Source of the DNA: a virus
Lineage: Duplodnaviria > Heunggongvirae > Uroviricota > Caudoviricetes
DNA length: 9,284 nucleotides
IMG/VR virus record: IMGVR_UViG_2671180524_000015
Direction: 5' to 3' (one strand)
Position 1 is the stretch's first letter. The number at the start of each line of letters is the position of its first letter. A model generated the notes under the pieces. The model was not told the origin of the DNA, searched no databases, and saw only the letters and a program-made list of their open reading frames with translations. This document shows, piece after piece, positions 4,306 to 6,542 of this stretch. The translations under genes were made by a program, and so were the position numbers.

Positions 4306-4334
4306 AGAAAAAACAAAACCCGCCGAAGCGGGTT
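4306..4334 (-). terminator. Intrinsic terminator between hok and the rem-like gene
   Basis: Minus strand AACCCGC-TTCG-GCGGGTT followed by TTGTTTTTT (7-bp stem, UUCG tetraloop). Confidence 0.6.
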
Positions 4335-4402
4335 AAGTGCGGGTGCGTTGAGGATGCCTGACACATCAGCGGTGGCGAGGGATTTCTCCCCCGCCTGGTC
4401 TC

Positions 4403-4545
4403 TTACTCCTCAGGTTCGTAAGCTGTGAAGACANNNNNNNNNNNNNNNNNNNNNNNNNNNNNNNNNNNNNNNNNNNNNNNNNNGTCACTATGACGGTTAA
4501 ACAGATGACGATCAGGGCGATTAACATCGCCTTTTGCTGCTTCAT
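4403..4545 (-). CDS. hokD: Hok-family type I toxin (HokD/RelF-like), interrupted by N-gap 4434-4483
   Basis: AAGGAG Shine-Dalgarno then ATG at 4545-4543. N-terminus MKQQKAMLIALIVICLTVIV; after the gap the frame ends ..VFTAYEPEE with TAA at 4405-4403. Both ends match my memory of the 51-aa HokD. Confidence 0.8.
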
Positions 4546-4666
4546 AACCTGCTTCTCCTTGCCTTTCGGCGCGTAAGAGGCTAACCTACGTTTGTGAAGC
4601 ATAGATTGGGCCTCAGATTAATGTTAAGCGTCTTGCAGGACGCGTAATGTTAACTGGGGCTTTTCT

Positions 4667-4702
4667 CTGTCTGCCTTACGGTGGCATGCCCGAGGCAGAC
4701 AG
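4667..4702. repeat. Perfect 10-bp inverted repeat with 16-bp spacer containing an 8-bp palindrome
   Basis: CTGTCTGCCT (4667-4676), spacer TACGGTGGCATGCCCG with GGCATGCC inside, AGGCAGACAG (4693-4702). Confidence 0.5.
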
Positions 4703-4762
4703 CCTCAAGCACCCGCAGCAATTCTACTTAACTCTCGCTTTACAGCAAACCGTTTTGCCCGA

Positions 4763-4788: not shown

Positions 4789-4893
4789 TCAGTTCCCCAG
4801 GCGCTCCATCAAAAACACAACCAGGCAGTAAACACCCACAACAGCAATAACAGCCAGAGCGCCTTCCATTACCAGTGAAATATCATCCGACAT
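4789..4893 (-). CDS. 34-aa hydrophobic (single predicted transmembrane helix) peptide
   Basis: Strong AAGGGAGGG Shine-Dalgarno 4 nt before the ATG at 4893-4891; MSDDISLVMEGALAVIAVVGVYCLVVFLMERLGN, stop TGA at 4791-4789. Below the ORF-track size cutoff. Not recognised. Confidence 0.5.
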   Translation of the reverse strand: MSDDISLVMEGALAVIAVVGVYCLVVFLMERLGN

Positions 4894-5002
4894 ATTCCCT
4901 CCCTTGGTGTGAATCCCGGCGAACGTTTTTACCCCCACCGACAAATAACATATACTAGAAAAGCAATAGCTATAGCAACGCCTGCAAATGCATCTGGCCG
5001 GC

Positions 5003-5566
5003 TCATTGGTTCTCCCCCTGTGTCGCTTCTACTGCGATCTGACTGGCGTATTCGTTAATGGTAACGATAAGTTCTTGCTCGGCCTCATCCAGACAACTAC
5101 CGATACCTCGCCTGTCCACTTCAGAAGCATCGAAATCTGCACGAAGCCTGGCGACCTTCAGGATTGCGGACAACACCTCATCAGGGATTGCCGGAGAGTT
5201 GGTTGACGTTTCCGAGATTATCCGAAAATTATTGGTTGACGAACCCTTATTTTCCCGAAAGTTTCCAGCCTGAAGCATGGCGGCGCGGTGACACCAGATA
5301 ATCCAGCCAAGCGCCATATCCCATGCCATGTATTCTCTATCGCCATTTTTTGCTCTGCGGCGATCTACAGATTCCCCGAAACGCTTCTCCATAAATAATT
5401 CATAGGCTGCCCGTTCATCCGATACTGATGCCAGTGATGCCAGTGCAATTTTTAATGCGGTAAGCATGTTGTTTTGATCTTCATCGAGTCCGAACGGTAT
5501 TTCATCCCGTGATGACTCAATTCCGGTAATCGTGTTCTGTAGCCATTCTTTGGTTAATTCAGTCAT
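5003..5566 (-). CDS. Hypothetical protein, 187 aa
   Basis: Long ORF from ATG 5566-5564 (MTELTKEWLQNTITGIESSRDE...) to stop 5005-5003. Weak Shine-Dalgarno; preceded by a 126-nt AT-rich intergenic region. No family recognised. Confidence 0.6.
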   Translation of the reverse strand: MTELTKEWLQNTITGIESSRDEIPFGLDEDQNNMLTALKIALASLASVSDERAAYELFMEKRFGESVDRRRAKNGDREYMAWDMALGWIIWCHRAAMLQAGNFRENKGSSTNNFRIISETSTNSPAIPDEVLSAILKVARLRADFDASEVDRRGIGSCLDEAEQELIVTINEYASQIAVEATQGENQ

Positions 5567-5692
5567 TTTTCACTACCGCCCTTTCGGGCGGTCTCCTGAT
5601 GTTCTGAGGGTGCAGGAATCCCTCCGGTTAAGGATTTAATAAAAATCATTTCTGATTTAAATTTTCAGTGTTTAGTTGTTGGTTTATAGCCT

Positions 5693-6004
5693 TTATGCTT
5701 CGGCCTTATTTCTCAGCCATACACAAACAGGACCATCTTCGGTGTCATGTATCGAACCGATAAACCATCCCTCACCTTCTGGTCGCTCAGGTTTCCATGC
5801 TGAAATATCAGGGCCATCTGCGTCCAGATTAAAATCATCTTCATCCATACTACGGATAGCCCACTGAAGATTATTTTTCTCCATCCAGGCGTTAAACTCT
5901 TCCGTTGAAATATATTCCCGACCATCACAGAATTTTTCATATTCAGGATGCGTCCAGCAGCCATATTCATTACGTTCCACTGGCATTTCTTTAATTACGC
6001 TCAT
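5693..6004 (-). CDS. Hypothetical acidic Trp-rich protein, 103 aa
   Basis: ATG at 6004-6002 overlaps the upstream stop as ATGA; AAGGGGGG Shine-Dalgarno. MSVIKEMPVERNEYGCWTHPEYEKF... Confidence 0.6.
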   Translation of the reverse strand: MSVIKEMPVERNEYGCWTHPEYEKFCDGREYISTEEFNAWMEKNNLQWAIRSMDEDDFNLDADGPDISAWKPERPEGEGWFIGSIHDTEDGPVCVWLRNKAEA

Positions 6005-6189
6005 TTACCCCCCTTATTTAATTTTCTACGACACTTTTTACAATCATCTGGACTTTCGAATGTATCCGGCTCACGCTCATTGCCAAAATACATCCACCCA
6101 CCGCAAATACTTGTTATTTCACCTTCAGCAAAATAATGATGTTTTTTCGCCATAAGTGGCCTTGCCCAGCCCGGATTCGTTTTACTCAC
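6001..6189 (-). CDS. Hypothetical small Cys/His-containing protein, 62 aa
   Basis: GTG start at 6189-6187 overlaps the upstream stop as GTGA, with AGGAGG 6 nt upstream. ..HHYFAEGEITSICGGWMYFGNEREPDTFESPDDCKKCRRKLNKGGK has a possible Cys/His metal-binding spacing. Confidence 0.5.
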   Translation of the reverse strand: MSKTNPGWARPLMAKKHHYFAEGEITSICGGWMYFGNEREPDTFESPDDCKKCRRKLNKGGK

Positions 6190-6542
6190 TTGTTGCCTCC
6201 TTTGCGAAGCTCTGCGACTAACTCGTCACATATGTGCGTCAAAGAGCAAAGTTTGATTGCTGGATGTTCGCGCACCATCTCCACACCCTGCGCCCGCAAT
6301 TCTGCCAGAAAAGCGTAGGGGTCAGTTTTTTCACTGTGGTACATGGCATCATAGATAATCATTGCAGCGACACCTGCCTGTCCTGCATCTGTGACGGATA
6401 TATGCTCAAGGGCTACGGCCATTGCGTGTTTCAACCTCTCATTTTCCACCTCAAGCACCACACGATTAGCCTCCAGCTCTTCTATGCGTTTTTTTGCTGC
6501 TCCCAGCTCAACACGCAGCTCCTGATAGTTAATCTCGCTCAT
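6186..6542 (-). CDS. Hypothetical protein with predicted N-terminal coiled coil, 118 aa
   Basis: ATG at 6542-6540 overlaps the upstream stop as ATGA; GGAGGAAGGAGA Shine-Dalgarno. MSEINYQELRVELGAAKKRIEELEANRVVLEVENERLKHA... Confidence 0.6.
   Translation of the reverse strand: MSEINYQELRVELGAAKKRIEELEANRVVLEVENERLKHAMAVALEHISVTDAGQAGVAAMIIYDAMYHSEKTDPYAFLAELRAQGVEMVREHPAIKLCSLTHICDELVAELRKGGNK

Follow-up and report, generated by a model that had tools for sequence, protein, structure and literature searches.

A predicted mosaic accessory gene without a DUF551 domain behind a portable leader in an Escherichia coli O157:H7 lambdoid prophage

Position of the 187-aa gene in the prophage

The 9,284-nt stretch of viral DNA in IMG/VR record IMGVR_UViG_2671180524_000015 (the window, in whose numbering all coordinates are given) is the early-right operon, encoded on the minus strand, of an Escherichia coli O157:H7 lambdoid prophage of the Qin/Rac type. 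The subject of this analysis is the region 5003–5692, in which a gene for a protein of 187 amino acids (aa) is read from the minus strand, together with the non-coding leader in front of it and the small open reading frames (ORFs) behind it. A near-identical prophage (99.9% identity over 1.1 kb) is carried by 343 complete E. coli genomes, and all 20 of the genome matches listed were E. coli, many of them labelled O157 or O157:H7. In chromosome NZ_AP018488.1 the order on the coding strand starts with genes for a LexA-family repressor, Cro, YdaT, a DnaT-like replication protein, P and DUF1627, continues with four small hypothetical genes, a 103-aa gene, the 187-aa gene and a 34-aa gene, and ends with hokD, a 92-aa gene, DUF968, RusA, Q and tRNAs. 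This order places the 187-aa gene, a genuine accessory gene, within the nin-like part of the early-right operon. The original prediction for this stretch, which had been made from the sequence alone, described the gene as set off from tightly coupled upstream genes, and this was confirmed: a gap of 126 nt (5567–5692) separates it from the 103-aa gene, compared with 4-nt overlaps further upstream.

Modular architecture of the 187-aa protein

Searches of Pfam (E <= 0.1), NCBIfam and PADLOC with the 187-aa protein, as well as sequence and profile searches of the PDB, gave no usable match; the earlier description of the protein as unrecognised agrees with the lack of Pfam, NCBIfam and PDB matches in the profile searches. 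Three PHROG families of unassigned function matched, namely 14306 (residues 93–181, E = 1.3e-34), 660 (residues 48–98, E = 1.2e-17) and 60 (full length, E = 2.4e-7). A homologue search returned 4,326 proteins, with matches spanning 53–97% of the query at 50–99% identity. Most of these proteins are annotated as DUF551 domain-containing and match the first 53–72% of the query at >90% identity. A motif check (WMPLP) found DUF551 in 83 of the 120 homologues listed, and the motif is absent from the 187-aa protein. In relatives such as P0009, P0010, P0014 and P0020, the alignment covers the whole query and then continues into a further linker and DUF551.

From these comparisons the protein can be laid out as module A (residues 1–47), module B (48–100, ending in RAAMLQAGN), a low-complexity linker (101–127), module C (128–181) and a six-residue tail, TQGENQ. 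An exhaustive search (1,049 clusters at 50% identity) found the modules separately and at varying positions; among 46 module-bearing proteins, DUF551 was present in 21, Ead_Ea22 in three, a dATP/dGTP pyrophosphohydrolase domain in one and Lar in one. The P0009 gene, part of a P22-like early-left operon, matches the 187-aa gene almost completely at the DNA level between about codon 39 (IALASLA) and about codon 181, with an abrupt loss of identity at either end. In strain SJ7 the corresponding slot holds a DUF551 gene, and its ...PPQEVRQ* end is homologous to the final 18 nt of the 187-aa gene together with the small ORF behind them. The DNA breakpoints and the tail homology together indicate an A-B-C-DUF551 architecture from which DUF551 was taken out. 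The DUF551 domain has been removed from the 187-aa gene; its remnant is the last six codons, which bear the ribosome-binding site (RBS) of a coupled 25-aa ORF. To judge from these sequence comparisons, the gene as a whole is a recombinational mosaic in which low-complexity linkers connect three short, predicted helical modules. In P0092 (165 aa) the N-terminus is different but module C and the TQGENQ tail are the same, indicating that the form without a C-terminal domain has recombined further and is not a one-off wreck.

The closest comparison is with the DUF551 (PF04448) prophage proteins of E. coli and Shigella lambdoid phages, in which modules A and B are common at >90% identity and some of which share module C. 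They have the same linker motifs as the 187-aa protein (IALASLA, RAAMLQxGN and FRENK...STN) and, in strain SJ7, the same slot, which is followed by the two small peptides (25 and 34 aa) and hokD, with homologous last six codons. They differ in that their defining domain is absent from the 187-aa protein, which ends after module C. For Ea22 and its Stx-phage variants (Ead_Ea22, PF13935), exchange of a portable C-terminal domain from phage to phage has been described, with DUF551 found in Ea22_V2 (PMC10834534, PMC7093339). The likeness to Ea22 of lambda and Stx phages concerns design only, in that an early, non-essential and mosaic gene encodes a short segment at the N-terminus, then a long helical or coiled-coil stretch and finally a C-terminal domain that can be exchanged. 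In contrast, the 187-aa gene lies in the nin-like region and Ea22 in the exo-xis region. Ea22 itself has pro-lysogenic activity. No Pfam match of the 187-aa protein to Ead_Ea22 was found, hhalign with lambda Ea22 gave a probability of 0.5% (E = 0.11), and BLASTP against a neighbouring 118-aa protein with weak Ead_Ea22 likeness detected no similarity.

An AlphaFold2 model built from a 44-sequence alignment is all-helical, with six helices, disorder at residues 100–128 and a mean predicted local distance difference test score (pLDDT) of 50. By analogy with the domain-shuffled Ea22 and DUF551 early proteins, the 187-aa protein would most likely be a helical scaffold that oligomerises and binds a partner from the host or the phage. 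The gene is a non-essential accessory and unexceptional within the huge family of shuffled prophage proteins. A defence, anti-defence or toxin-like function had been suggested for it; a search of PADLOC-DB v2 returned zero families for the 187-aa, 103-aa and 25-aa proteins, and with no other evidence in its favour the suggestion stands unsupported, rather than contradicted.

A leader shared with other accessory genes

The 187-aa gene is preceded by a conserved non-coding cassette of about 95 nt (Table 1), composed of an AT-rich part that occurs in two related variants and a 60-nt core, TCCTTAACCGGAGGGATTYCTGCACCCTCAGAACATCAGGAG-RCCGCCCGAAAGGGCGGT. Cassettes become homologous at the stop codon of the upstream gene, which varies, or directly behind it, and they remain so up to the last base of a hairpin (stem-loop 2); across the gene families behind the cassette the ATG follows 5–10 nt beyond the hairpin. 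The leader just upstream of the ATG was matched in 2,627 of 5,426 complete E. coli genomes, mostly before other genes. With the hairpin left unconstrained, a pattern search detected the cassette in IMG/VR (at least 120 contigs); in GTDB species genomes it was seen in E. coli and Shigella and in one metagenome-assembled genome labelled Collinsella. Grouped by their first six residues, the products of the genes behind 114 copies include those of DUF7167 (63 copies), DUF4014 (21), the MTELTK/MAELTK type that includes the 187-aa protein (15), MGITKE/MEITKE (8) and MQDIKE/MQEIKE (4). The cassette is a portable leader common to at least five gene families. Rfam searches at E <= 1 across 5003–5692 matched no family. 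AgvB/AsxR anti-sRNAs (small RNAs) and Pas sRNAs were considered for the CA-rich start of the leader and rejected, their positions being elsewhere, beyond the late promoter and close to the esterase and holin genes. A gene of the MGITKE/MEITKE type on one contig (L004, 3071–3589, 172 aa) bears the Prokaryotic Genome Annotation Pipeline (PGAP) label 'antiterminator Q family protein'.

The distribution of the cassette bears on an explanation of low probability in our estimate, according to which it is mainly a recombination linker for the exchange of accessory genes by homologous recombination, the hairpin being non-regulatory or mRNA-stabilising. In line with this, the cassette has sharp homology ends on both sides with unrelated genes upstream and downstream, and each prophage region has one copy. 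It stands where the replication module gives way to the nin-like genes, and occurs also between Ead/Ea22-like and other accessory genes in apparent early-left ea-type regions. Moreover, its copies are about 95% identical, covariation in the hairpin is not significant (see below), and the 187-aa gene is itself a predicted mosaic with breakpoints at conserved linkers. The linker explanation, however, does not account for four gene families that lack a Shine-Dalgarno (SD) sequence of their own and start 5–8 nt after the hairpin, for an invariant GGAG beside variable bases, or for the bias of the substitutions in the 5' arm towards those that keep G-U pairs. A linker role is compatible both with a hairpin-bridged RBS and with sequestration of an RBS in the hairpin, since one element can serve as linker and RBS. 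Conserved boundary or linker sequences at mosaic joints are part of the concept of modular evolution in lambdoid phages. The cassette resembles such linkers as a short conserved non-coding stretch with unrelated genes on both sides in different phages, and differs from them in being unusually long (about 95 nt), structured and widespread, and in appearing to carry the RBS of the following gene.

Hairpin and ribosome-binding site

The hairpin that ends the cassette had been noted in the original prediction as a perfect 7-bp stem lying 8 nt before the ATG at 5566; this was correct except for its coordinates, which were one base off (true position 5575–5592). Stem-loop 2 is present in both the minimum free energy and the centroid structures. 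By our own arithmetic about three perfect 7-bp hairpins are expected in the window, where seven overlapping instances were found; a hairpin of this kind is therefore not rare by itself, and its significance comes from its conservation elsewhere. Across cassette copies, stem-loop 2 is paired in 96.5% of cells and varies mostly by C-to-U changes in the 5' arm that keep G-U pairs, the 3' arm being nearly invariant, a pattern that fits, and only suggests, constraint on the sense-strand RNA. One compensatory change was found, and 150 of 500 shuffles of these highly similar copies do as well. The weaker stem-loop 1 further upstream (Table 1) is paired in 97% of cells and displays no covariation.

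No SD sequence was detected by anti-SD duplex energy in the spacer AGUGAAAA between the hairpin and the start codon. The other genes of the operon have SD duplexes of −10 to −12 kcal/mol located 3–7 nt upstream, and the 187-aa gene has none outside the hairpin. The AGGAG sequence that abuts the 5' side of stem-loop 2 contains a GGAG found without change in all 43 distinct cassette variants, while the bases just 5' of it vary. If the hairpin is folded, 18 nt would be looped out and the distance from this SD sequence to the start codon would shrink from 26 to 8 nt. Family members without the cassette have AAGGAG 7–8 nt from the ATG, so that the looped-out geometry of 8 nt reproduces the normal one. 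The cassette thus arranged probably supplies the RBS of whichever gene is placed behind it, and a split, that is, hairpin-bridged, RBS is a serious candidate, although its probability, drawn from geometry, stays somewhat below even.

PMC3014915 (citing Nivinskas 1999 and Malys 2009) states that split RBSs have been shown experimentally in phage T4, where the spacing is reduced from 22 to 5 nt for gene 38 and from 27 to 11 nt for gene 25. The arrangement described here is similar in having an SD sequence >20 nt from the AUG in linear distance (26 nt here), a stable hairpin lying wholly in between and a residual distance of 8 nt. The T4 cases differ in concerning one structural gene each of a lytic phage, whereas the putative site described here is portable, precedes several unrelated genes, belongs to temperate phages and is known from its geometry. 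A further difference from the T4 genes is that the 3' arm of the present hairpin is itself SD-like.

The last point opens an alternative that we judge unlikely, in which the hairpin is a translational repressor: the SD sequence would be the 3' arm GGGCGGU, sequestered in the stem 7 nt from the ATG, and translation would occur only once the stem has been opened, for example by ribosomes coming from upstream, by a helicase, by altered RNA processing or by a shift in temperature. Of the sequences within 22 nt of the ATG, GGGCGGUA forms the best duplex with the anti-SD sequence (−7.8 kcal/mol, 7-nt spacing), conservation in the hairpin is highest in the 3' arm and the stem is very stable; in the window only, an upstream ORF ending on the ATG could open the stem. 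GGGCGGU could itself be a weak SD sequence, with the hairpin then repressing translation, and this counts against a split RBS. On the other hand, 97 of 114 leaders have no such upstream ORF, so that a general opener is lacking, GGCGG has a central mismatch to the anti-SD sequence, a perfect GGAG(G) is invariant directly beside the stem, and a permanently closed start site in five gene families would be odd.

Transcription of the 187-aa gene and the upstream ORF

An AT-rich upstream region with promoter-like hexamers had been proposed as a sign that the 187-aa gene is independently regulated. The AT content of the gap is indeed above that of the window, but only modestly so (59.5% versus 48.9%). 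The proposed hexamers, TTTAAA (5656–5661) and TTAAAT (5634–5639) with a 16-nt spacer, match 8 of 12 consensus positions, and a consensus scan reported them neither in the window nor in a relative with the other leader variant (L011), for which it returned neither a promoter nor a terminator. Between 4300 and 6300 the scan found no promoter, and no terminator except at 4317–4334 beyond hok, the first terminator-like site on the coding strand. The signals that characterise a moron, namely a sigma-70 promoter of its own upstream and a terminator downstream, were not found for the 187-aa gene, and the proposal of independent regulation was not borne out, as the scan revealed no consensus promoter or terminator flanking the gene. 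The absence of these flanking signals indicates that the gene most likely rides on the early-right operon transcript; its expression would most likely depend on read-through from a phage early promoter, and it would not form a stand-alone transcription unit.

The proposed promoter also conflicts with a 28-codon upstream ORF to which regulatory meaning had been given. Its ATG (5647–5649) lies inside the spacer between the hexamers, and therefore promoter and upstream ORF cannot both serve the 187-aa gene, as RNA begun at that promoter would lack the upstream ORF. The upstream ORF does exist and overlaps the main start codon as ATGA, but it is not conserved: of the 114 related leaders, 97 lack any ORF that terminates on the main ATG, and five have the version found in the window. 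In the closest relatives with the same AT-rich leader variant, its ATG reads ACG or GTG, and an exact look-up of its peptide in a collection of 15 billion proteins found that it was never called. No conserved upstream ORF that could provide mok/hok-like leader-peptide coupling was found among the 114 leaders. We judge the upstream ORF to be accidental.

A cis-acting role of the cassette in transcription, either as a tR2-like terminator or as an antitermination RNA resembling nut or put, appears extremely unlikely. In lambda, tR2 lies roughly after the replication genes. The cassette has roughly that position, contains two stem-loops within 60 nt, the second of which resembles a boxB-type GNRA hairpin, and is present in both early operons. 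However, the sequence that follows the hairpin is AGUGAAAAAUG, and no T-run, and hence no U-tract of an intrinsic terminator, is found on either strand; nor did the scan identify a terminator there. No boxA-like match of a nut site was found near the hairpin, the count for the locus being equal to chance, no Rfam family was matched, and stem-loop 1 is no more stable than shuffled sequences. Unlike a nut or put site, moreover, the cassette is separated from the early promoter by about 4 kb.

Small ORFs downstream of the 187-aa gene

The stop codon of the 187-aa gene overlaps the start of a 25-aa hydrophobic ORF (Table 1) that had been overlooked in the original prediction; the SD sequence of this ORF, GGGGGAG, is located within the final codons of the preceding gene. 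Its product is one of a family of 25–27-aa hydrophobic peptides ending in ICRWG, the commonest form being MTWPEAFTTVGIAMAVALVVYSICRWG. Among the loci analysed, 49 of 49 copies displayed the ATGA overlap with the preceding gene, and the ratio of non-synonymous to synonymous polymorphism (pN/pS) was 0.26. One variant of the peptide matches 1,293 complete E. coli genomes and always overlaps the stop of the preceding gene. PGAP annotation of the ORF was missing in the three RefSeq loci examined. The 25-aa ORF is conserved and under purifying selection, and its product is predicted to be a membrane peptide.

The original prediction had combined the 187-aa gene with the 34-aa peptide gene in a two-gene module. 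The block of the 25-aa and 34-aa genes is found upstream of hokD in 673 genomes, about 344 of them at >=99% identity. Among the matches listed, the block follows two hypothetical proteins in the set of about 344, as in the window, and lies behind DUF551 proteins in the remainder; the pairing of the 187-aa gene with the 34-aa gene is therefore not specific. The module does not survive this check of co-occurrence, with only about 344 of the 673 blocks lying behind the 187-aa gene, and the gene translationally coupled to the 187-aa gene is the 25-aa ORF and not the 34-aa gene. As a separate observation, both peptides are encoded on three IMG/VR contigs (L047, L088 and L107) in which nothing matches the 187-aa gene.

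Taken as one model, the original prediction joins the 187-aa gene and the 34-aa gene in an independently transcribed module that has a promoter of its own, coupling through the upstream ORF and a defence, anti-defence or toxin function, a model that we regard as very unlikely. The AT-rich stretch before the gene, the ATGA overlap of the upstream ORF, the presence of hydrophobic small peptides and hok/sok downstream, and the failure to find a known function speak for it. It is countered by hexamers that match 8 of 12 positions where the scan saw no promoter, by the position of the upstream-ORF ATG inside the promoter spacer and the lack of conservation of that ORF, by the lack of a PADLOC match and of a terminator that would close the unit, and by the occurrence of the 34-aa gene without the 187-aa gene in about 330 genomes.

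Neighbouring features

The sok/hokD leader region is the downstream boundary of the accessory block, and the coordinates of all features are listed in Table 1. Three genes upstream of the 187-aa gene, a 118-aa gene (6186–6542, minus strand) encodes a weakly Ead_Ea22-like coiled-coil protein (Pfam E = 0.004; PHROG 492 and 368), indicating that the nin-like region holds several genes of the usual exo-xis/ea-region kind. Between hokD and the 92-aa gene, a weak isrK-like Rfam match (4313–4394, minus strand; 27 bits, under the gathering score) overlaps the terminator-like hairpin with a T-run at 4317–4334, and a second weak isrJ/isrK-like match is located at 1727–1800, downstream of Q. Five tRNA genes lie at 799–1605 on the minus strand, one with the anticodon CAT, one Arg-TCG and three copies of Arg-TCT spaced about 260–300 nt apart. 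The otherwise near-identical prophage of NZ_AP018488.1 has three tRNA genes, and the Arg-TCT unit therefore appears to be amplified in the window, whose tRNA region at 799–1605 is broken up by runs of masked bases.

Table 1. Features of the 187-aa gene region, in the order in which the minus strand is read.
Feature	Coordinates	Strand	Remarks
103-aa gene (PHROG 1372)	5693..6004	-	Last in a run of genes with 4-nt overlaps
Conserved non-coding leader cassette	5575..5669	-	AT-rich 5' part (variant 2; 5635–5669) and 60-nt core (5575–5634)
28-codon upstream ORF	5563..5649	-	ATG at 5647–5649; stop overlaps main start as ATGA
Stem-loop 1 (GAGGG-N9-CCCTC), weak	5606..5624	-	−5.8 kcal/mol, no better than shuffles
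AGGAG Shine-Dalgarno sequence	5593..5597	-	Abuts 5' side of hairpin; 26 nt from ATG linearly
Stem-loop 2 (ACCGCCC-GAAA-GGGCGGT)	5575..5592	-	Perfect 7-bp GC-rich stem, GAAA tetraloop, −14.1 kcal/mol
A-rich spacer AGTGAAAA	5567..5574	-	8 nt from hairpin to ATG; without Shine-Dalgarno sequence
187-aa coding sequence (WP_000137954.1)	5003..5566	-	From ORF list; RefSeq hypothetical protein in 99.9% identical O157:H7 chromosome
25-aa hydrophobic ORF MSRPDAFAGVAIAIAFLVYVICRWG	4929..5006	-	ATGA overlap with stop of 187-aa gene; unannotated
34-aa hydrophobic peptide gene (WP_001278460.1)	4789..4893	-	Strong Shine-Dalgarno sequence of its own
sok antisense RNA and hokD leader region	4540..4714	-	Rfam RF01794, 114.9 bits; hokD annotated in RefSeq relative

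Discussion

Our best explanation of the whole locus, held with moderate confidence, is that a mosaic accessory gene deprived of its DUF551 domain would be expressed by read-through behind a portable leader that would provide a split RBS, the upstream ORF being accidental. Besides the SD-like 3' arm discussed above, several points weigh against this explanation. The covariation of stem-loop 2 falls short of significance, and the high identity of the cassette copies means that their conservation may reflect recent spread and not selection. An upstream SD sequence is not always needed, as the MGITKE/MEITKE family, the only one behind the cassette to do so, has its own GGAG in the spacer. None of four peptides was found in the small-ORF ribosome-profiling supplements for strain Sakai, the consensus scan is unable to exclude a weak or non-sigma-70 promoter, and with a mean pLDDT of only 50 the idea of a scaffold rests on analogy.

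The noteworthy parts of the locus are its shared leader and the coupled, unannotated micro-ORF. The 187-aa gene is one more domain-shuffled accessory protein gene, of interest mainly as a natural variant without the C-terminal domain, and nothing points to a role in defence or as a toxin. Neither the leader nor the 25–27-aa ORF bears on a long-standing open question. About half of the complete E. coli genomes contain the leader, and the start codon of an accessory gene, which varies, always comes directly after it. A tentative and rather improbable extension is that the leader of about 95 nt is a portable expression cassette, combining a recombination linker with a hairpin-bridged RBS, and that the ATGA-coupled 25–27-aa peptide is the terminal gene of the same accessory array. 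If this were true, a gene recombined behind the cassette would gain a ready-made translation start, somewhat like at the cassette site of an integron, but at the level of translation. If the RBS is indeed split, a mechanism known from T4 would be extended to temperate phages and would explain how shuffled genes continue to be expressed once they have recombined.

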